64,000 nt of DNA, taken from contig CAVXJC010000006.1 in NCBI GenBank assembly GCA_963762075.1, positions 33,788 to 97,787 on the forward strand, given 5' to 3'. Below are positions 11,084-62,152 of this stretch, piece after piece. Numbering within the stretch: the stretch's first letter is position 1; each line of letters begins with the position of its first letter. This DNA is from an uncultured Actinomycetes bacterium (GTDB lineage Bacteria; Actinomycetota; UBA4738; HRBIN12). The position numbers and the translations under genes are program-made. The notes beneath the pieces are model-generated. The model did no database searches and was not told where the DNA came from. It was given only the letters and a program-made list of their open reading frames with translations.

Positions 11084-11665
11084 ATGGCGGGTATCGCTCG
11101 CGTCGTCGGGGTGATCGCGATGGCGCTCGTCGGGTGCGCGAGTAGCCCCCCGATGGCCGGCGCGCCGGGTTCGAGCGCTCCGCCTGCGCCGGTCGCGCTG
11201 CCGGTCTCCGCATTGCCCCGCATGACGAGTGACGCATCAACCGTCGATGTCGATCGGCTGGCGAACGAGGTCGTGCACCCCGACGAGCTACGCGCTGTGC
11301 TGGATGATGCCGGCTTCTCCACGGGCGCGCAGCGCTCGTTCGGCGCCGGCACGGGCGCGTTCTCGCGGGTGCTGTCGCGAGGTCTCGCGTTCGAGACCGA
11401 GGCCGGGGCCGCCGCCTTCGTGACGTGGTTCGGCGACAACGCGGGTGAGGAGGTCATCTCGGCCGACCGGATCTCGCCCAGCAGGGTGCCCGAGGGGGTC
11501 GTCGTGTTCCGCCACCTGCCCGACGGCTGCTGCCGCAACGACGTGCCGGTCTACCTGGCGGCCTGGCAACGCGGCCCCTCGGTGCTCTATCTGCACGTCG
11601 GCGGGCGCCGGGCGAACACGCGAGCCTTCGTGGAGCTCATCGAGTCGTACGACCGGGAGGTATGA
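11084..11665 (+). CDS. hypothetical lipoprotein
   Basis: MAGIARVVGVIAMALVGCASS signal/lipobox. Ends at a TGA that overlaps the next ATG (ATGA). Confidence 0.55.
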   Translation: MAGIARVVGVIAMALVGCASSPPMAGAPGSSAPPAPVALPVSALPRMTSDASTVDVDRLANEVVHPDELRAVLDDAGFSTGAQRSFGAGTGAFSRVLSRGLAFETEAGAAAFVTWFGDNAGEEVISADRISPSRVPEGVVVFRHLPDGCCRNDVPVYLAAWQRGPSVLYLHVGGRRANTRAFVELIESYDREV

Positions 11666-12508
11666 CGATGCTCGACCATCTCGAGACCATCGCGACCGGA
11701 CTCGATCACCCTGAAGGGGTCGCCTGGGGCCCCGATGGCCGCCTCTACGCAGGTGGGGAAGCCGGCCAGGTCTACGCGGTCGACGCCGATGGCCGCGTCG
11801 AAGAGATCGCGTCGACCGGCGGGTTCATGTACGGCGTGACGCTCGACGGCGACGGCAACGTCTACGCCTGCGACTTCGGCCGCGCCGAGATCGCGCTCGT
11901 GACGCCCGGCGGTTCCGTCTCGTCCTACTCGACAGGAACGACCGAGCACCGGATCCGGGTTCCGAACTTCACGGCCTTCGACGACCAGGGGAACCTCTTC
12001 TTGACGGACTCGGGCACGTGGGGCGCCGACGACGGGCTCCTGTTCAAGGTATCGGCCGGCCGGGACCGAGGTATGGTCCACCGCGGTGCCGGGATTCCCG
12101 AACGGGTGCTGTCTCTCGACCGCCGGAGACGCCCTGCTCGTGGTCGAGTCGAGCCGGCGTCGGGTCGTGAGCGTGCCGATCCGATCCGACGGCTCGGCGG
12201 GCGCGCCCGAGCCGGTGGCCGACCTCACCGGGTCACAGCCCGATGGCATCGCCCTCGCCGCCGACGGCACGATGTTCGTCGGGTGCTACCGGCCCGATCG
12301 GGTCTGGCGCATCCCACCCGGCGGCAGGCCGGAGGTTCTGCTCGACGATCCCGACGGGGTGTCGCTGAACCAACCGGCGAACGTCGCGTTCATGGGACCC
12401 GAGCTCGACGGTCTGGCGATCTCGAGCCTCGGTGGATGGAGCATCGTCGCCCTCGATGTCGGAGTCGCCGGACTCCCCCTGCGGTACCCGAAGCCTGCCC
12501 AGACATGA
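11662..12508 (+). pseudogene. SMP-30/gluconolactonase/LRE-family beta-propeller protein, frameshifted
   Basis: N-terminal half sits in the frame of ORF 11662 (TGLDHPEGVAWGPDGRLYAGG...NLFLTDSG). C-terminal half sits in the frame of ORF 12086 (GFPNGCCLSTAGDALLVVES...). A +1 shift occurs at a GCCGGG run near 12085-12095. Confidence 0.6.
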
Positions 12509-15066: not shown

Positions 15067-16515
15067 ATGCGAGCCCTCGCGGATCACTACGAAGCGGTCC
15101 GCGGCGACTTTCCCGACCATGAGCTGTGCGTCGTCTTCGATATCGACGGCACCATCCTGGATCTTCGACATCTCGTGGTCCACGCGTTGTTGATGTTCGA
15201 CCGCGTCCGTGAGACCGAGATCTTCCACGGTCTGGTGGCCGAGGACGTCGTGGTATCTGAGAATCAGATCGATGCGCTGCTCGACAGCCTCGAGGTGGCG
15301 CCGAGGCAGCGAGACGATGTCGCGGCGTTCTATCTCGCGCACCTTTGGGACGAGAGCGGAGTGATCGCGGCGAGCGCCCCGTATCGCGGCGTGCTGGGTG
15401 TGATCCGCTGGTTCCAGATGCAGGCCGGTACCCACGTCGCGTTGAACACGGGCCGGGCAGAGTCCATGCGCCGCATCACCCTCGACTCTTTGAACGCCGT
15501 CGGTGAAGCCGCACGCGTACGCTTCGAGCCCGAACTGCTCTTCATGCGGAGCGGCGAGATGACCGTGTCGCAAGCGAAATCTGCGGCCTTGAACGAGCTG
15601 TGCGCTCGGGGCTTCCGCATCGTCGCGGTCGTCGACAACGAGCCGGAGAACCTCGCCGCGATGGCAGAGTCGCACGACGCGCAGGGGATGATGTTCCTTC
15701 ACGCCGACACGATCTTCGAGTCACAACGCTCTGAGGGGCTGACCGCGGTGACCGGCACGGCGTACGAGCTCGGAGGACTCATCGGCGAAGATCGCCTCAA
15801 GGAGCACGTCGAGCTCGTCTGGCACGGCGTCAACGACGAGGAGAACCTGCGGCACTATCTGGACTCGGGCATCACGTGGGCCGAGATCGACGTTCGTCGC
15901 GACCCAGTGGGGCGACTCGTTCTGCGCCACGATGGCTTCGACGAACGCGCATGGAACCGCGACGAACGCTCGATGCCGGCAGAGCCGACCATCGACGCGC
16001 TCGCTACTGCGGGCCGATCGATCAAGCTCGACGTCAAGGAGAACGGCGGCACGCTCCAAGCCGCCCTTGACCTGATCCGCGAGCTCGAGATCAGCGCCGA
16101 GCGCGTGTGGTTCAACGCCGAGATCCAGGTCGTCGGCGCCTCGGGCTTCGAGACCTTCGGCAGCCGGTACCCGGGTTCCACCGCATCGTGCCCGATCGAC
16201 TTCCTCGTTCCGCTGCTCGAGGTTGCGCCCGACGAGGCCGACATGGTCCTGGAGCGCCTGCGTTCATGGGGCCTGAACCGTCTCTCGGTGAAGTGGGGAA
16301 GCCGAGTGCGGCACATCATCGGCGAGCTCGAGCGGCGCGGCTGGGAGACGAACATCTACGCCGTGCCCGACCTGCAATCGTTCCTGGAAGCCGCCGTGTT
16401 GCTGCCGACGTCGGTGACCGCGGACTTCAACTTTCCGGCCTGGCGCTACTACGGTCGAGGCTCAGGCCAGCATGGCGTACTGCATCGGTACGAGTCCCAC
16501 GCTCTGCTCGGGTGA
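15067..16515 (+). CDS. HAD-family hydrolase fused to a glycerophosphodiester-phosphodiesterase-like (PI-PLC fold) domain
   Basis: Start set at MRALADHYE, after the upstream minus-strand gene. HAD motif I is VVFDIDGTILD. C-terminal half has HG.NDEEN...EIDVRRDPVGRLVLRHD, a GDPD-type pattern. Confidence 0.65.
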   Translation: MRALADHYEAVRGDFPDHELCVVFDIDGTILDLRHLVVHALLMFDRVRETEIFHGLVAEDVVVSENQIDALLDSLEVAPRQRDDVAAFYLAHLWDESGVIAASAPYRGVLGVIRWFQMQAGTHVALNTGRAESMRRITLDSLNAVGEAARVRFEPELLFMRSGEMTVSQAKSAALNELCARGFRIVAVVDNEPENLAAMAESHDAQGMMFLHADTIFESQRSEGLTAVTGTAYELGGLIGEDRLKEHVELVWHGVNDEENLRHYLDSGITWAEIDVRRDPVGRLVLRHDGFDERAWNRDERSMPAEPTIDALATAGRSIKLDVKENGGTLQAALDLIRELEISAERVWFNAEIQVVGASGFETFGSRYPGSTASCPIDFLVPLLEVAPDEADMVLERLRSWGLNRLSVKWGSRVRHIIGELERRGWETNIYAVPDLQSFLEAAVLLPTSVTADFNFPAWRYYGRGSGQHGVLHRYESHALLG

Positions 16516-16584
16516 CTCGAAGGGCTCAAGTGTGGCAGCGATCCACCCGGTGACCGGCAACTCGTCGGTGCGGCTACATTGCAT

Positions 16585-18079
16585 GCGATGACCGGGACCG
16601 GCGCGGTGCCGGGTCAGCGACCCTTGGAGGTGGAGGCCTGGAGACCGCGACGCAGACGCTGCACCGTCTCACGTCATACGAGCCTGGCCGTGACTGGGAC
16701 GAACCCATAGACGACCCTCGCGTCTTGCAGGATCTCGAGGTCAACGACCTGGCCCGCTTCCCGTGGTTCTACAAGCGGTACGAGCAGTCGTTGCCTCGTG
16801 TGCCACTCCCCCGCCGACCTGCCGCCAACCAGAGCCCCGGCCGTCGCCGTGCTCGCAGGCACTGCCGCGGTCGCCCACACCGAGCTGGACCTGCCGCACC
16901 TCTCTCGGTTGCTCCACTTGTCCTCCGGGGTCGTGAGAACGATGGAGCGGCCGTATGCGACGTGGCTGTTCCGCGCCGCCGGGTCCGCGGGAGGCCGTTT
17001 CCCTCTCGAGGTGTACGTCTCCGTTCCGGACGGCATCGGGCTGCCGGCAGGGGTGCACTGGTACGACCCGCGCGATCACGCCCTCGTCAAGGTCGGACCG
17101 CCTCCGCGCGGAGGCGCGCCCGCCGTCGTCGTCACCGGCGTCCCGTGGCGTACCGGCTGGCGCTACCGCGAGCGTGGCTACCGGCACGTCTACTGGGATG
17201 CCGGCACCATGCTCGCCCAGCTGCTCACGGGGGCCGACTCAGCGGGGATCACGGCGCGGCTGTACACCCGCTTCCCTGACGCGGCGGTCGCTGCGCTCGT
17301 CGGCGCCGACGGGGTGCACGAATGGCCCGTGGCCGTCGTCGCGCTCGGCGATGGCGTGCCTGCGATCGACGGCGACCGATGCAGCCGCCGTGGGGGACGT
17401 CGACGCGGCTCCGGTCGAGTTCCCGCTCGTCACGATCGCGCAGCAGGCGGGTGCACGCGACACGCTCGGGCGACCGTGGAACCGCGGCGCCCCGGTCGAT
17501 GTGCCTGCGCAAGGAGGTGATCCGGTCGAGACGGTCGTGCTCGCGCGCGGGTCGCAGCGCCGCATGGACCCGACCCGCGGCCTGCCGGCGAGCGTACTGC
17601 GAACATCGCTCGACGCGGCGCTTCGTGACGTCACGCTCCCCCACTTCGTCGTGGTCCACGACGTCGAGGCGCACACGCCGGGTGTCTACCGCCATCCGAA
17701 CCTTGCGGATCCGGTGCGGGCAGGTGCGATGCGATCTCAGCTCTACCGGGTGTGCCTCGAGCAGGGGCTCGCTCGAGACGCGGCGTTCGTCGTGATCGGC
17801 GCGACCGACGTCGGCGCCCTCGACGACCGGGAGTACCGCGAGGCGCAGCTCGCCGCCGGTCTGGTCGAAGGCAGGCTGCACCTGCTGGCCTACGCGCTCG
17901 GCGCGAGCGCCTCCGGGATGACGTTCATCGACAGCGAGGTGCCGGCGCTGATCGGCGAGCGGCTGGACGCGCTGCTCTTCACTTGCGTCGGCGTGCCGGA
18001 ATACACGTCGGCGGTCGGCGGCTCGCCCGGCGTGCCGACCGCCGTACGCAAGGTGAGCAGAGCGATGACGTCACGCTGA
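16585..18079 (+). pseudogene. SagB/ThcOx-type (nitroreductase-fold) dehydrogenase, two-domain, at least three frameshifts
   Basis: Conserved N-terminal block LHRLTSYEPGRDWDEP...FPWFYKRYEQSLPRVPLPR lies in a frame with no start codon after its upstream stop. Domain 1 (RAAGSAGGRFPLEVYVSV...YRHVYWDAGTMLAQLL) is in a second frame. Domain 2 (RRMDPTRGLPASVL...GMTFIDSEV) is in a third. Shifts fall near 16640, near 16815 (C5 run) and near 17385. Confidence 0.5.
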
Positions 18080-18147
18080 GAAGGTTCGAGGACCACCGGT
18101 TCCGTGACGAGGTCGAGGAATCGGTCGCAGATGCCGATACGCCCGGT

Positions 18148-19221
18148 ATGCGCAAGACGGCGTGCTGCCTCGCCATCATCCTGCTGGCCGGCGTTCTTGG
18201 TGCCGTGCCGGCGTTCGCGACGTTCGGTGCGATCGTCGAGCTCCCCGCGGATGCGATCTACTCCCCCTACGGGGGTCCGGCGACCGTGACGTTCACGTTC
18301 GAGCCTGAGGACGCAGCTGCGATCTTCACCGCGCGGATCCGACGGCCGGGACACGGCGAGATCAAGACGAAGGACTACCTGGTCGACCCCGACACCCAGA
18401 CCTCACCGCACGCCGTTACGTTCTCGTGGGCGAAGCTGTCTGTCGCTGCCCCCACCGACTACGTGGTCGACGTCCGCCGTCAGGGAGAAGGCTCGGTGAT
18501 CACGAGTGAGACCTTCACGTTGCTCCCGAAGCTGGTCTCCGAGCTCTCGGCGCAGCCGTCGCCCTTCTACCCCCTGGTCCAGGACGGATACAAGGACCGC
18601 ACCACGATCGGCTTCTCGCTGGCGGCCGATACCGTCGAGACGGTCGTTCGGATCTTCGAAGATGACGCGTTCGGTCGATGCTGCGGTGCGGAGATCCGCT
18701 CCGAAAGCTTGGGCCCGCTCGCGGCGGGCGGGCAAGGCTGGATCTGGGACGGTGCCATGGACGACGCATCGATCGCCCGGAAGGGCACCTACTTCGCACG
18801 GGTCAGCGCGACCGACACGGACGGGGTGTCGATGGTCTCGAAGGCTCAGAAGTTGAAGATCACGAAGGGTCTGATCCGCAGGACGGCCACGAAGCAGAAG
18901 AACGGGAGCGCGTACGCGCGCACTGCACACGAGCAGGAAACCGCGTACGCGGGCGACTGCCGGGTATCGCGCGTCGCGGCGACGCACGAGGCCGACATCC
19001 TCTGCGTCAACGCGAAGATCTCGGTCTACTGGCGATGGGGTCTGAGGCCGGGGGAACGGATCGAGTCGATCTCGTTCGTGATCCAGCGGGGCATCTACGG
19101 ATGTCACCGGGCTCAGGGCCACACGGACACGCAGTCGTTCGTGCGCGTGCATTCGCCGCCGACCTCGTCGTGCTCCGTCGTCTCGGCCACGATCAAGTAC
19201 AGCTACCCCGTGCAGGCCTGA
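18148..19221 (+). CDS. secreted protein with FlgD-Ig-like (PF13860-like) domain
   Basis: Signal peptide MRKTACCLAIILLAGVLGAVPAFA. SPFYPLVQDGYKDRTTIGFSL...IFEDDAFGR...GWIWDGAMDDASIARKGTYFARVSATD matches the FlgD Ig-like pattern. Confidence 0.6.
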   Translation: MRKTACCLAIILLAGVLGAVPAFATFGAIVELPADAIYSPYGGPATVTFTFEPEDAAAIFTARIRRPGHGEIKTKDYLVDPDTQTSPHAVTFSWAKLSVAAPTDYVVDVRRQGEGSVITSETFTLLPKLVSELSAQPSPFYPLVQDGYKDRTTIGFSLAADTVETVVRIFEDDAFGRCCGAEIRSESLGPLAAGGQGWIWDGAMDDASIARKGTYFARVSATDTDGVSMVSKAQKLKITKGLIRRTATKQKNGSAYARTAHEQETAYAGDCRVSRVAATHEADILCVNAKISVYWRWGLRPGERIESISFVIQRGIYGCHRAQGHTDTQSFVRVHSPPTSSCSVVSATIKYSYPVQA

Positions 19222-22611: not shown

Positions 22612-22896
22612 ATGCCGCGATATCTCGTTCAGCGAAACTTCGGCAATATCGACGATGAGCATCTTGAGCTGCGTGCGCGCAAGAGCAAGTTGCTCACCGA
22701 GACCGACTTCACCCAGATCACGTGGGAGCACAGCCACGTCGTCGGAAGCCCCGACGGGGCCGTCCGTACCTTCTGTATCTACTTCGCACCGGATGAAGCT
22801 ATCGTGCGTGATCACGCCGACGCGATGGGCGGACACCAGATAGAAGTGATCTACGAGATCGGCGGAGACGTGGCGCCATCCGACTTCACGAACTAG
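22612..22896 (+). CDS. DUF4242 domain protein
   Basis: MPRYLVQRNF...TFCIYFAPDEAIVRDHADAMGG...IEVIYEI matches the DUF4242 (PF14026) pattern. GGGAG RBS. Confidence 0.7.
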   Translation: MPRYLVQRNFGNIDDEHLELRARKSKLLTETDFTQITWEHSHVVGSPDGAVRTFCIYFAPDEAIVRDHADAMGGHQIEVIYEIGGDVAPSDFTN

Positions 22897-25039
22897 CGGG
22901 GTCCACTCGCGCCGCGCGCCGAAGGGTCTCCTCGTCCATCTGCGAGTGCTCGTATCGCGACCAAGCGACGCTGCGACGAAGACCGATCGAGCGGCGCCGG
23001 CCCTCCTCGTCCTTCGGGATCAGCGAGAGCGCCTCCTCGAATAGGGCCACCGCCTCGGCGTTCGCCCAGGCGCGCTCGGCACGCTCGGCCGCCGAGAGCA
23101 GGTAGCTCACTGCTCGCTGCGGGTCGCCTCCTTCCTTCCAGTGGTGGGCGAGGATTGCGGCGATGCTGTCGGCTTCCGGCACCGTCTGCTCGAAGTACTG
23201 GGCCACCGCCTGGTGCCGGTCGCGCCGGTCGCTCTTCGTGAGCGTCGAGTACGCGACGTCACGGATCAGTATGTGGCGGAACGCGTACTCGCGGTCGCCC
23301 TCGACCTTCGAGGAGGGCTCCGTCCGGATGAGGTCGCGCGATTCCAGCGAGTCCAATGCGTCGTCCAGCGCATCGCCGCTGGTGCCGAGTCCGCCCAGCA
23401 CACCATGCCAGAAGACCTTGCCCACCACGGCCGCGTCGTTCAGCACCGATCTCTCGTGCCTGGGTAGGGCATCGAGTCGCGCCGCGATCATCGCCTTCAC
23501 CGTGGTGGGGAGGACCGCGCGGTCACCGCCCTCAGCGACCCACGACGACAGCTCCTCGATGAACAGCGGGTTCCCGCCCGCCGTCGCCTCGATCTGCGCC
23601 GCGACCTCGACAGCCAGCGTTGGCGTGAGCTGCGCCGCCAGGGCTTGTGATTCCTCGGTCCCCAACGGCTCGAGACGGATCGTGAACGAGGAGAGCTGGC
23701 CGCCGCCCCACATCGGCCGGATGTCGAGCAGCTGGGGTCGGGCGAGGCACAGGAGCAGGATCGGCGTGTCCTTCATCCGGGCCGCCAGCGAGTCGATCAG
23801 GTCGAGCATGCTGGGGTGGGCCCAGTGGATGTCGTCGAACACGAGGAGCGTGGGCTGATCGTGCGCGAGCGCCTCCACGAACCGGCGGGCGGCGTCGAAG
23901 ACCTCGCGTCGATCCTCGGCGGAGGCCTCGGCTGTCCCTACGAAGACGGCCAGCCGTTGCGAGACTTCAGGGTCATCAACCCCTAGCCCTGCGAGGGAGC
24001 GCTCCAGCTTCTCGGTTATCACTGCATCGACGTCGAGCTCGAAGACCCCCGCGACCTCCTTCACGAGCTGCCCGAAGGCCTCGTAGCCGACGCTCTGGGT
24101 GTAGGGAAGCTCTCGCACCAGCAGGGATCGGCCGCCGGTGCGCTCCATGTGGTTCGCCAGCTCCGCCGCGATGCGGCTCTTGCCGATGCCCGGCTCGCCG
24201 AGGATCGTGACCAGGTGCGCCCGCCGCCCGGTCACCACGCGTTGCCAAACATCGTCGAGCAGGCCGAGCTCGCTCCCGCGACCGAGGAACGGCGTCTCGC
24301 TGGGGCGCTGCCCGAAGTCGGTGAGGGGCTCGACGGCGAGCCAGGTGGGGACCGGGTCTCGCTTGTTCTTGGCGATGACGGGCTCGACGTTCTCGTAACG
24401 GATCGATCGGTGCGTGGCGCGGTGGGTCTCCTCGCCCACGAGCACGCGTCCCGCCGGCGCAGCGGATTGGAGCCGCGACGCGGTGTTCACCATGTCGCCC
24501 ACCACGAGCGCTGTACTCTCCGACGTGGGATCGAGCTCTACGACTGCCTCGCCGGTGTTCACCCCCACGCGCACCCTGAGCTCGGCATCGGGCAGTTCTT
24601 CGTTCAGAGCGGCGACGGCGACCGGGATCTGGAGGGCGGCGCGAACGGCGCGCTCGGCGTCGTCACCCCGGGCCACGGGGGCGCCGAACACGGCCATCAC
24701 GGCGTCGCCGATAAACTTCTCGACGGTGCCGCCGAAGCGCTCGATCTCCACGCTCACGCGCCGGTAGTAGTGCTCGAGCAGCTCGCGCACGTCCTCCGCG
24801 TCGGTGGACTCCGACCGCGAGGTGTAGCCCACAAGGTCGGCGAAGACCACCGAGATAACCTTCCGCTGTCGCTCCGCGTCCTCGGACCTCGCCCGGGTTC
24901 CGCATGCCGGGCAGAACCGTGCGTCCTCGGGGCCGTTCGCTCCGCAATGGCTGCAAACCCATCCCACACCCGCCCCACACGTCGCACAGAAACGAGACTC
25001 ATCCGGGTTCGCTGCGCCGCAACTCGTGCACACCCTCAC
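22886..25039 (-). CDS. zinc-ribbon / class III adenylyl-guanylyl cyclase / AAA+ ATPase / TPR-like multidomain signalling protein
   Basis: N-terminal double CxxC zinc ribbon (CTSCG...CATCG...CSHCG...CPACG). Cyclase homology domain (VVFADLVGYT...FIGDAVMAVFG...NTASRLQ). P-loop GEPGIGKSR. C-terminal helical repeats. Start codon uncertain: no ATG, so GTG at 25039 chosen; TTG at 25090 is the alternative. Confidence 0.85.
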   Translation of the reverse strand: MRVCTSCGAANPDESRFCATCGAGVGWVCSHCGANGPEDARFCPACGTRARSEDAERQRKVISVVFADLVGYTSRSESTDAEDVRELLEHYYRRVSVEIERFGGTVEKFIGDAVMAVFGAPVARGDDAERAVRAALQIPVAVAALNEELPDAELRVRVGVNTGEAVVELDPTSESTALVVGDMVNTASRLQSAAPAGRVLVGEETHRATHRSIRYENVEPVIAKNKRDPVPTWLAVEPLTDFGQRPSETPFLGRGSELGLLDDVWQRVVTGRRAHLVTILGEPGIGKSRIAAELANHMERTGGRSLLVRELPYTQSVGYEAFGQLVKEVAGVFELDVDAVITEKLERSLAGLGVDDPEVSQRLAVFVGTAEASAEDRREVFDAARRFVEALAHDQPTLLVFDDIHWAHPSMLDLIDSLAARMKDTPILLLCLARPQLLDIRPMWGGGQLSSFTIRLEPLGTEESQALAAQLTPTLAVEVAAQIEATAGGNPLFIEELSSWVAEGGDRAVLPTTVKAMIAARLDALPRHERSVLNDAAVVGKVFWHGVLGGLGTSGDALDDALDSLESRDLIRTEPSSKVEGDREYAFRHILIRDVAYSTLTKSDRRDRHQAVAQYFEQTVPEADSIAAILAHHWKEGGDPQRAVSYLLSAAERAERAWANAEAVALFEEALSLIPKDEEGRRRSIGLRRSVAWSRYEHSQMDEETLRRAARVDPASS

Positions 25040-25112
25040 GCGAAAAGGATATCCGGGTGAGCCCGGCGACCAGCGGCCCGATAGCAGCAACCAGGGGACC
25101 GAACTGCGGAGG

Positions 25113-25361
25113 TCAGGATGATCGCTCCCTCATCTCACCCGTCATCATCGCGAGCCTCGGTAAGACGATTGGCAGCCGCCAGGTGCTGCGCCGGGTCGAG
25201 GAGGAGCAATCGGTCTCGAGGATTCGGCAGCCGAACATCTCCCTCGCGAGCTCCACGGCTACGACGCGAACCGCGTCAGGATCCAAGAGATGCTCGGGAT
25301 CAGCGGGCATCGACCACCCTTGGACCTCATCGAGGACGTAGTCGGGTGCGTGGATCCCCAT
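25113..25361 (-). CDS. hypothetical small protein (82 aa), C-terminus ...RERSS
   Basis: ATG preceded by a GAGAGG RBS about 7 nt upstream. GC3 about 75%. Sits between the cyclase and flippase genes on the same strand. Confidence 0.35.
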   Translation of the reverse strand: MGIHAPDYVLDEVQGWSMPADPEHLLDPDAVRVVAVELAREMFGCRILETDCSSSTRRSTWRLPIVLPRLAMMTGEMRERSS

Positions 25362-33486: not shown

Positions 33487-33548
33487 GGTTGATGGTTGGT
33501 CGGTGGTGGTGGTTCCTTCGTTCGTTCGTTGGTCGGTCGGTCGGTGGG
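33487..33548. repeat. microsatellite-like short tandem repeats ((GGT)n, (TTCG)3, (GGTC)3) immediately 3' of tRNA-Tyr
   Basis: ggttgatggttggtcggtggtggtggttccttcgttcgttcgttggtcggtcggtcggtggg seen directly in sequence, within a 400-bp non-coding stretch. Confidence 0.6.
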
Positions 33549-33626
33549 AGGAGGAGGATTCGAACCTCCGTAGGCATCGCCGGCGACTTTACAGGCCGCT
33601 CCCTTTGGCCACTCGGGCATCCTCCC
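33545..33626 (-). tRNA. tRNA-Tyr (anticodon GTA), type II with long variable arm
   Basis: Reverse complement folds as GGGAGGA acceptor. D-arm matches E. coli tRNA-Tyr. Anticodon stem GCGGC/GTCGC with loop CTGTAAA. Variable arm CGGCGATGCCTAC. T-arm GGAGGTTCGAATCCTCC. Discriminator A. Confidence 0.85.
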
Positions 33627-45473: not shown

Positions 45474-46487
45474 CTAGAACGCGACCTTGAAGAACGCGGC
45501 GCCCAGGATCCACACGAGCGAGACCGGGATGAGCGTCAGCCATGCGAAACGCTGGAGCTGATCTTCACGCAGCCGTGGGAATGTCGCCCGCAGCCAGATC
45601 GTCAGGAACGACAGGACGCCGATCTTGCCCGCCATCCAGATCGGGTCGGGCAGCGGGATGCCGGGCAGCCCCTGGTAGCCGCCGAGGAACAGCACCGCGG
45701 CGATGCCCGAGAGCGCCACGATGCCGCCGTACTCCGCGAGCAGGAAGAACGCGAACTTCAACCCGCCGTACTCGGTGAAGGCGCCGTAGATGATCTCGGA
45801 GTCGGCGACCGGCATGTCGAAGGGCGTGCGGCTGAGTTCGGCGAGCGAGGAGACCATGAAGATCAAGAACAACGGGAACAGCGGCACGGCGTACCACAAC
45901 GACTCCTGCGCCTCGACGATGCCGACCATCGAGGTGGCGCCGGCGAGCATCACGACGCCCGCGGCCGACAGCACCAACGGAAGCTCGTAGGCGATGAGCT
46001 GCGCGGCGGCTCGCAGGGCGCCGATCAGCGAGAACTTGTTCGCGCTCGACCACCCGGCCATGAGCACGCCGATCACCGAGACGCTCGACATGGCCATCAC
46101 GAAGAAGATGCCCACGTCGAGGTTCAGGGCGAACAACGTGTCGCTGAACGGCAGCACCACCAAGATCGCGATATAGGGCACCATGGCGACGCCCGGCGCC
46201 AGCGTGAAGATGACGCGATCGGCCGCGGCCGGCACCACGTTCTCCTTCTGGATGAACTTCACGCCATCGGCGATGAGCTGGGCCCACCCGTGGAAGGCGC
46301 CCGCTTCCATTGGACCGAGGCGCGATTGCATGTGCGCGAGCACCTTGTGCTCCATGTAGCCGACGCCGAGCGGCACCACGAGGAAGAACCCCAGCACGAG
46401 CACCGTCTTCAGCAGCAACGAGAGCCAGAAGTTCGTGGTGAGCTGCTCGACGAACGAGACGCCGGCCTGCGCGAGGACGTCGATCAT
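45474..46487 (-). CDS. nuoH: NADH-quinone oxidoreductase subunit H (partial-operon copy)
   Basis: [12 protein letters not shown]...[14 protein letters not shown] NuoH/ND1 signature. ATGA overlap with nuoC. Confidence 0.85.
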
Positions 46488-53935: not shown

Positions 53936-54237
53936 CCGCGTAGCACGCTCGCTCGGTCGACGTCGGTGGTCGAGGTGCGCCGAAAGACCGCCACGATGAT
54001 GGCGAGACCGACCACTACTTCGGCGGCCGCCACCACCATGGAGAAGAAGGCCAGGATCTGTCCGTCGAGCTCGAGGTGCATGCGCGAGAACGCCACGAGC
54101 GTGAGGTTCACTGCGTTGAGCTGCAGCTCGACACCCATGAAGATGCGCAGCGCGTTCGGCCGGGTGAGGACCGCCGCCGAACCGACCGCGAACAAGATCG
54201 CGGAGAGCACCAGGAAGTAGGCGATCGGCGTCCTCAC
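53932..54237 (-). CDS. nuoK: NADH-quinone oxidoreductase subunit K (complete-operon copy)
   Basis: 101 aa with the canonical NuoK sequence. ATGA overlap with nuoJ. Confidence 0.85.
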
Positions 54238-54785
54238 CGCGTCGCCTCGATCTCGCGCTGGGTGAGCACCTTCGAGCGGCGCAGCGCGAGAACCATCGCG
54301 GCCACCGCGGCGATGATCAGCAGGATCGAAGTCACCTCGAACGGGAAGAAGTAATCGCGGAAGAGCACGTCGGCGAGCGCTGACGGATTCCCGCCCGGGT
54401 TCACCGTGTCGAACCCGTCGGGTGCCCTGGTTGCGAACCCGACCCCCGCTCTGATGGCGGTTGCGAGCTCCGCCACGATCGCAAGGCCGAAGATCACGGC
54501 GGTCGTGCGCTGGCCGAACAACCGCTCACCCGGCAACGCGCCTTGGTCGACGCCGAGCAGCATGATCACGAACAAGAACAGGACCATGATCGCGCCCGCG
54601 TACACGACGATCTGCACGGCGAAGAGGAACGGTGCGTCGAGCAGCAGGTACATCACGGCGATCGTGAAGAAATTCACCACGAGGAAGAGAGCCGCGTGCA
54701 CGGCGCTTCGTACGACGATCATGCCGACGCCGGTCGCGACCGACAGCGGCGCGAAGACCCAGAACACGACGTTGTCGAGAGGCAC
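54234..54785 (-). CDS. nuoJ: NADH-quinone oxidoreductase subunit J (complete-operon copy)
   Basis: [37 protein letters not shown]... Confidence 0.85.

Positions 54786-60874: not shown

Positions 60875-60875
<1 letters not shown>
60279..60875 (-). CDS. nuoE: NADH-quinone oxidoreductase subunit E
   Basis: Thioredoxin-like 2Fe-2S motifs CTNLSC...CLGVCELAP. Confidence 0.85.

Positions 60876-62152
<1,277 letters not shown>

Follow-up and report, generated by a model that had tools for sequence, protein, structure and literature searches.

The locus considered here raises the question of whether a SagB-like gene that changes its reading frame three times over some 1.5 kb is decaying, as the initial annotation supposed when it described a heavily frameshifted dehydrogenase, or whether it is an intact gene that has been misread in the assembly. 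It lies in a stretch of 64,000 nucleotides (hereafter the window), which has a high GC content of ~66%. We favour the second answer, with a probability of roughly 0.7: the three frame breaks would be long-read consensus artefacts in an otherwise intact and ordinary gene.

Translation of positions 16500-18100 in three frames gives one protein-like sequence, which passes from frame mod 0 to mod 1 and then to mod 2, and returns to mod 0 for the last four codons. All frame pieces are colinear and contiguous with single orthologs of 475 residues, in protein as well as in DNA alignment. The presence of three frame changes within one gene, as initially reported, is confirmed by these ortholog alignments and by a GC3-based segmentation. 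A conceptual join from which bases 16816, 17370 and 18056 have been removed consists of 475 codons and a TGA stop (16638-18068), contains no internal stop and no other indel, and ends in RKVAER followed by the stop. The restored protein shows no deletion and keeps every family-invariant motif. It is 96% identical to P0001, an intact protein of 475 residues, and the conceptual join shares 77-85% identity with the other 119 of the 120 best protein matches, all of which are intact and 470-539 residues long. The JGI metagenome contig of P0001 (L001) aligns to window positions 16618-18376 at 97.7% DNA identity, with exactly three gaps in the gene; one 1-nt difference between the two lies in a T-run just 3' of the gene. 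Over the gene itself, DNA identity is 98.4% to L001 and 98% to a second contig, L098.

The positions of the shifts had been estimated with varying success: the first, at about 16815, was placed rightly (16816), the one at about 17385 was 15 nt off (17370), and the shift at 18056 had been missed. The frame change proposed at about 16640 does not exist; position 16638 is where the family start codon aligns, with CTG in place of GTG or TTG. In the annotation of the source assembly, the region of segment 3 appears as a protein of 242 residues (P0166, 17351-18079), and translation as written from the CTG would yield 59 native and 154 out-of-frame residues, or 213 at most. If the breaks are artefacts, the organism would read the gene in a single frame that ends with the TGA at 18066 and begins at 16638, where the consensus has CTG and relatives have GTG or TTG. 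The coordinates of all features are collected in Table 1.

Table 1. Features of the SagB-like gene, its upstream region and the additional frame break in the window
Feature	Position	Strand	Evidence or remark
Frame break, +1 (GG to GGG), in the SGL/gluconolactonase-like gene 11662-12508	12060..12062	+	blastx split matches; blastn gaps
Spacer at structural polymorphism	16502..16617	.	split blastn alignments of L088, L089 and L098
TACATT, -10-like hexamer within the conserved GCTACATTGC upstream motif	16575..16580	+	ortholog alignment
Shine-Dalgarno-like GGAGGTGGAGG	16626..16636	+	aligns with GGAGGTAGAGG or GGAGGTTGAGG of L002, L005 and L007
Conceptual CDS, two-domain SagB-like/3EO7-like nitroreductase-fold protein	16638..18068	+	475 codons, stop and 3 extra bases
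CTG where the family start codon aligns	16638..16640	+	ortholog alignment
Segment 1, frame mod 0: residues 1-59, conserved HRLTSYEP... N-terminal block	16638..16815	+	
Extra G, mod 0 to mod 1	16816	+	blastn gaps versus L001, L088 and L098; outgroup column GGAGGGAA
Segment 2, frame mod 1: first nitroreductase-like domain	16817..17369	+	TIGR03605 78.2 bits, PF00881 25.8 bits
Extra C, mod 1 to mod 2	17370	+	alignment to L001 and L098; outgroup column CCCCGCCG
Segment 3, frame mod 2: inter-domain linker and second nitroreductase-like domain	17371..18055	+	weak PF00881 match
Extra A, mod 2 to mod 0, four codons before the true stop	18056	+	adjacent-base outgroup column GGAGATAG
TGA stop, restored frame	18066..18068	+	orthologs end in ...AER and stop

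The insertions were positioned by DNA alignment to the intact copy of L001 (98% identity), and the positions were confirmed with L098 and with a further contig, L088. At 16816 the window reads CGC C-G-AC, the JGI clade CAC and the majority of the other orthologs GAC; at 17370 it reads GA-C-G GCG, against GAG in the JGI clade and GAC in most other orthologs. At 18056 the window reads GTG A GCA GAG CGA TGA, the neighbouring base being G in most and A in three of eight outgroups. None of the three insertions in the SagB-like gene duplicates a neighbouring base, so that the homopolymer slips suspected at first as their cause are rejected. At each of the three sites the inserted base is an allele that at least two of the eight outgroup orthologs carry at the adjacent position, and the window spells out two alleles in tandem (C+G, C+G and A+G at 16816, 17370 and 18056, respectively). 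When all possible non-duplicative insertions are enumerated as a null, the chance of such a tandem allele is 0.18 per site, and ~0.006 for all three.

The substitutions in the gene were polarised as well. On the window branch, 4-7 changes are nonsynonymous and 2 synonymous, compared with 4 and 8 on the L001 branch; these counts are small and the difference is not significant. One change on the window branch, A197T, hits a near-invariant site. Two of the nonsynonymous changes recur in unbroken relatives: the partial copy P0168, which is uninterrupted, has E367Q, and one of the eight outgroups has Y209. Five differences from L001 lie within 37 nt (17227-17263), namely A197T, V198G, a synonymous change at S201, V204I and H209Y. 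Three of them can be assigned to the window branch as derived, and the polarity of the other two is ambiguous; the cluster might reflect a recombination tract, local noise in the consensus or relaxed selection.

Segmentation of the GC3 frame plot with a Viterbi procedure recovered the three switches and, among ~60 other gene boundaries in the 64 kb, only one further break, at ~12060; the clustering of the three shifts is therefore far from chance. Beyond these four breaks, which fall within 6.5 kb, the segmentation detected none over the remaining ~57 kb. The SGL-like gene that is broken at 12062 is intact (281 residues) in four Illumina contigs of 99% identity (L085, L086, L088 and L090), and this fourth break is most likely a long-read metagenome consensus error like the others. 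Indels with Illumina support in the same population are short deletions in small repeats (15489, 11059 and 18084). Elsewhere in the window, a blastx comparison with L006 (MFD08497.bin.2.117; 94% protein identity) shows a frame break near 23815, in the ORF 22886-25129 on the minus strand. This break seems to sit in L006, as the window ORF is open and coding throughout.

Close relatives of the gene are unbroken. Seven near-identical JGI copies (P0001/L001, P0167, P0168, P0169, P0170/L098, P0171 and L088) are intact at each site that they span, and at the sites spanned none of the seven contains any of the three insertions. Among all seven members of the 90% protein cluster, the only frameshifted one is P0166, the window's own fragment. 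The same insertions were not encountered in the scanned metagenome collection either, from which the clade is absent. More widely, a genome scan returned 190 loci with relatives, and in the best 80 of these the match is unbroken and covers all or nearly all of the length, with about 64-85% identity. All 80 belong to Actinomycetota; besides uncultured soil lineages, they include Actinoplanes, Asanoa and Nocardiopsis. Intact orthologs, a point on which the initial annotation had suggested a check, are thus found throughout both the best 80 of the 190 genomic matches and the 120 best protein matches.

Broken copies could be found as well, albeit elsewhere in the family. A protein search with the out-of-frame tail yielded further +1-shifted copies (P0210, P0211, P0230, P0261 and P0276), most of them on long ENA contigs; as no match exceeded 420 residues, full-length orthologs were apparently excluded and fragments over-represented, and the search gives no rate of frameshifting. 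The SagB-like ortholog is also broken by +1 shifts in both of two sibling contigs of the Microflora Danica long-read series with ~96% identity, L096 (ERZ25039599 contig_56601) and L097 (ERZ25039578 contig_33837). The two differ by 45 indels in 8.2 kb, mostly 1-nt and outside homopolymers, 34 of the 45 being 1-nt and non-duplicative. In L096, a Tad gene and the SagB-like ortholog are among several genes that are split. This pair shows directly what kinds of error occur in that data series.

The start codon shows a change of another type, a substitution. Most orthologs start with GTG (L002, L005, L007-L010, L014 and others), the JGI clade (L001, L098, L088 and L089) and L011 with TTG, and L012 with ATG. 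It had been stated correctly that ATG, GTG and TTG are all missing from the N-terminal frame of the window from its stop at 16551 up to position 16725 (16554-16725), but this is because CTG occupies the start position and not because of a frameshift. In E. coli, initiation at CTG reaches 1-2% of that at AUG (bioRxiv 10.1101/063800). The element GGAGGTAGAGG or GGAGGTTGAGG, with which the Shine-Dalgarno-like sequence of the window aligns, sits immediately 5' of the GTG starts in L002, L005 and L007. Further upstream, GCTACATTGC followed by ATGACC (window 16573-16593) is conserved at 45-65 nt 5' of the start in orthologs from different species, and the TACATT/GCTACATTGC motif recurs in L002, L006, L007, L068 and L014. 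From its sequence and position, this motif is probably the -10 element and transcript start of a predicted promoter serving a stand-alone gene. The upstream ATG at 16588 was considered as a start and rejected, being out of frame in the window and followed by in-frame stops in L007 and L068.

A structural polymorphism (window 16501-16618) has its right edge 20 nt 5' of the start codon. The JGI haplotype, known from Illumina contigs, carries ~2.8 kb extra at this point, with a gene for a protein of 277 residues and a sulfatase gene (L088 274-3062; L098 1083-3871), and the window has the arrangement of the more distant L002, the 2.8 kb being absent from both. A deletion of 2.8 kb that removed the promoter was rejected as a candidate, since the window shares the arrangement of L002 and keeps the conserved upstream motif; it is the JGI haplotype that carries an insertion.

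Our preference for consensus artefacts as the cause of the frame breaks is based on the +1 non-duplicative nature of the insertions, their coincidence with tandem alleles (p≈0.006), the intact JGI copies and the errors in sibling contigs. We propose that reads from co-occurring haplotypes were collapsed, and that the consensus would have kept both alleles in tandem instead of one. Such a collapse would adjoin the 2.8-kb polymorphism 20 nt 5' of the gene, which might plausibly have led haplotypes to collapse locally during assembly. The source is apparently a Nanopore-only Flye+Medaka contig of the Microflora Danica type, and many of the SagB-like orthologs come from Microflora Danica long-read MAGs. 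Those assemblies were made from Nanopore reads only, with Flye and one round of Medaka (PMC12313526), and frameshift errors in nanopore consensus sequences are a recognised problem (PMC9262707). The single-base indels that split conserved genes, here and in L096 and L097, resemble the errors of Nanopore-only Flye+Medaka assemblies. However, the nanopore literature consulted stresses indels in homopolymers, whereas those of the window and of L096/L097 are mostly single-base changes outside homopolymers, and those of the window are unusually localised.

Several further observations count against an artefact. The errors are very local, with four in 6.5 kb; the CTG is a substitution, which would not be expected from a mixture of GTG and TTG alleles; and the alternative alleles that the tandem-allele model requires (D60, D245 and T472) are known from more distant orthologs alone and are missing from the close JGI haplotypes. 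There is also the nonsynonymous excess on the window branch (4-7 versus 2), which is weak, and a real frameshift polymorphism exists next door, the 2-nt deletion at 15489.

Some of these observations also speak for another reading, that the gene is a real and very young pseudogene, in which a GTG or TTG start first mutated to CTG and three +1 insertions followed; the SGL-like gene would likewise be a real pseudogene, and the accessory region around the two would be in decay. We regard this as possible but doubtful. It would explain why lesions are restricted to two dispensable genes while everything else in the 64 kb, the nuo operon among it, is free of them, and it treats the CTG as an independent lesion, which errors of the indel type leave unexplained. 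The ratio of nonsynonymous to synonymous changes (4-7:2 on the window branch, 4:8 on the sister branch) and the five clustered substitutions at 17227-17263 fit it as well. The 2-nt frameshift of the adjacent HAD-like gene, shared by five Illumina contigs, shows that gene inactivation does occur in this neighbourhood. Spontaneous bacterial indels, on the other hand, arise mostly by slippage in repeats and with a bias to deletion, whereas all four frame breaks, 12062 included, are +1 insertions, three of which duplicate no neighbouring base. Three indels would moreover have accumulated on a branch of only ~0.7% divergence, at sites that coincide with allele-variable positions (p≈0.006), and they are absent from every independent contig, two metagenome scans for the clade having come back empty. 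Finally, the likely type of source data yields exactly this class of error.

The coincidence with variable positions could also be accommodated if the insertions are real and originated in recombination between diverged alleles, with heteroduplex mismatches (C/G, C/G and A/G) being processed into tandem alleles. A conceivable route to tandem alleles is cleavage by NucS/EndoMS followed by mutagenic fill-in and end joining, of the kind that actinobacteria possess. We consider such an origin highly improbable; if it were true, the gene would be a natural footprint of mismatch-triggered +1 insertions. Programmed recoding, by three +1 ribosomal frameshifts or by transcriptional slippage, can be set aside almost entirely. 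Its only attraction is that the shifts have the same sign and sum to +3, restoring the original frame for the last four codons, but a slippery or homopolymeric motif is present at none of the three sites, none of the full-length orthologs examined has the insertions, and the broken copies break elsewhere. An mRNA with three recoding events would, to our knowledge, have no precedent. Just as improbable is a fusion or overlap of unrelated ORFs, in which the three segments belong to different genes. Apart from the ORF track nothing speaks for it, and the colinear and contiguous alignment of the segments to single orthologous proteins, and to their DNA, contradicts it.

The decayed gene had been interpreted, together with the AlkZ-like gene next to it, as the remnant of a former natural-product or toxin locus. 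This could not be upheld: the orthologs are intact and the gene is stand-alone, without a conserved neighbour family. In the window its neighbours are a HAD-like gene of 482 residues, a secreted FlgD-Ig protein, the AlkZ-like gene (107 bits) and G6PD. No YcaO/cyclodehydratase or precursor-like partners were found by Pfam among the called neighbours of L002, L003, L004, L096 and L097, and each neighbour family within 5 kb was confined to at most 8 of the 62 loci compared; the clustering, being based on GC3-filtered stop-to-stop ORFs, is crude, and it establishes that a conserved partner is lacking but not that any given gene is missing. An AlkZ-like gene also occurs near the intact SagB-like gene in L002 and L004. 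Given the variable neighbours and this association with intact orthologs, nothing indicates that a natural-product or toxin locus once existed here.

The HAD-like gene (15067-16515, plus strand) has a 2-nt deletion at 15489 in the Illumina contigs L088, L089, L091, L092 and L095, which splits it into 145 and 334 residues; the gene is intact in the window and in L002. This deletion is a genuine frameshift polymorphism of the population, present in five Illumina contigs of different samples. The window further contains a tRNA (33545-33626, minus strand), its only Rfam match, and a nuo operon on the minus strand at ~40-62 kb, with NuoH at 45474-46487, NuoJ at 54234-54785 and NuoD at 60875-62152. 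NuoH, NuoD and NuoJ have 100% identical counterparts among independent database entries, and so do other proteins elsewhere in the window.

The assignment to the SagB family lies at the margin of the model. Of the segments aligned to TIGR03605, as the initial annotation had proposed, segment 2 scores 78.2 bits, against a cut-off of 78.4; P0001 scores 78.3 and the orthologs P0059 and P0086 score 82.1 and 81.0 (81-82 bits). Scores with the related model TIGR04511 are only 46-59 bits (cut-off 240), and PF00881 matches the restored protein with 37.7 bits (cut-off 23.5). The predicted fold is that of FMN nitroreductases, with fold matches to 3EO7, BmdC, McbC and classical nitroreductases; the underlying AlphaFold model, made from a shallow alignment of close orthologs, has a mean pLDDT of 51.7 and was used for coarse fold matching only. 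In a Foldseek search 3EO7 ranked first, over the full length (E=3e-15, TM 0.54), followed by BmdC, McbC and AlbA, and then ThcOx. 3EO7 is the putative nitroreductase Ava_2154 of Anabaena variabilis (JCSG, 511 residues), which likewise has two nitroreductase-like halves in a single chain. In sequence, it is the only strong match among solved structures: residues 87-240 of P0001 align with 73-241 of 3EO7 and residues 330-444 with 376-499 (E=4.8e-21), although identity is only ~22% and 3EO7 is equally of uncharacterised function.

The azoline dehydrogenases of SagB type, such as McbC of microcin B17 (6GOS) and BmdC (7LY4), also have the FMN nitroreductase fold and the SagB-type motif region FRAAGSAGGRFPLEVY, but McbC and BmdC are weak matches to the window family in both sequence and fold. 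Dehydrogenases of TOMM/LAP pathways are single-domain proteins that act on a peptide together with a cyclodehydratase (YcaO/C-D) or an NRPS, whereas the gene of the window has a duplicated domain and is stand-alone, with variable neighbours and without a conserved partner or precursor gene. ThcOx, the cyanobactin oxidase (5LQ4), has a homologous FMN domain, and 3EO7 superposes on its residues 323-469 (PMC5108345). However, ThcOx consists of two N-terminal peptide-clamp domains of RRE type followed by one FMN domain (PMC5108345); it aligns over 139 columns of a low-confidence model, and the window family has two nitroreductase-like halves instead. The initial description as a two-domain protein of SagB/ThcOx type therefore stands as far as SagB likeness and the two nitroreductase-like halves (as in 3EO7) are concerned, but not for the clamp architecture of ThcOx. 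NCBI names members of the family 'SagB/ThcOx family dehydrogenase'. 'Two-domain SagB-like nitroreductase-fold protein' is a fair name, with 'ThcOx-type' applying only through the shared FMN domain. On the reading favoured here, the product is an ordinary, probably functional, stand-alone two-domain protein of the FMN nitroreductase fold.

Whether it concerns an artefact or a pseudogene, the finding is an ordinary one. If the lesions were real, they would constitute a natural knockout in a family that is unbroken across the 80 related genomes retrieved, which would be only mildly informative. Caution is needed with genes that seem 'heavily decayed' on contigs from long-read metagenomes, since a handful of consensus errors can give this look to a gene that is intact and strongly conserved; nor does the name 'SagB/ThcOx' imply a locus for a peptide natural product. 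The uncharacterised family of stand-alone two-domain SagB-like flavoproteins of 475 residues may merit study in its own right, apart from this window.
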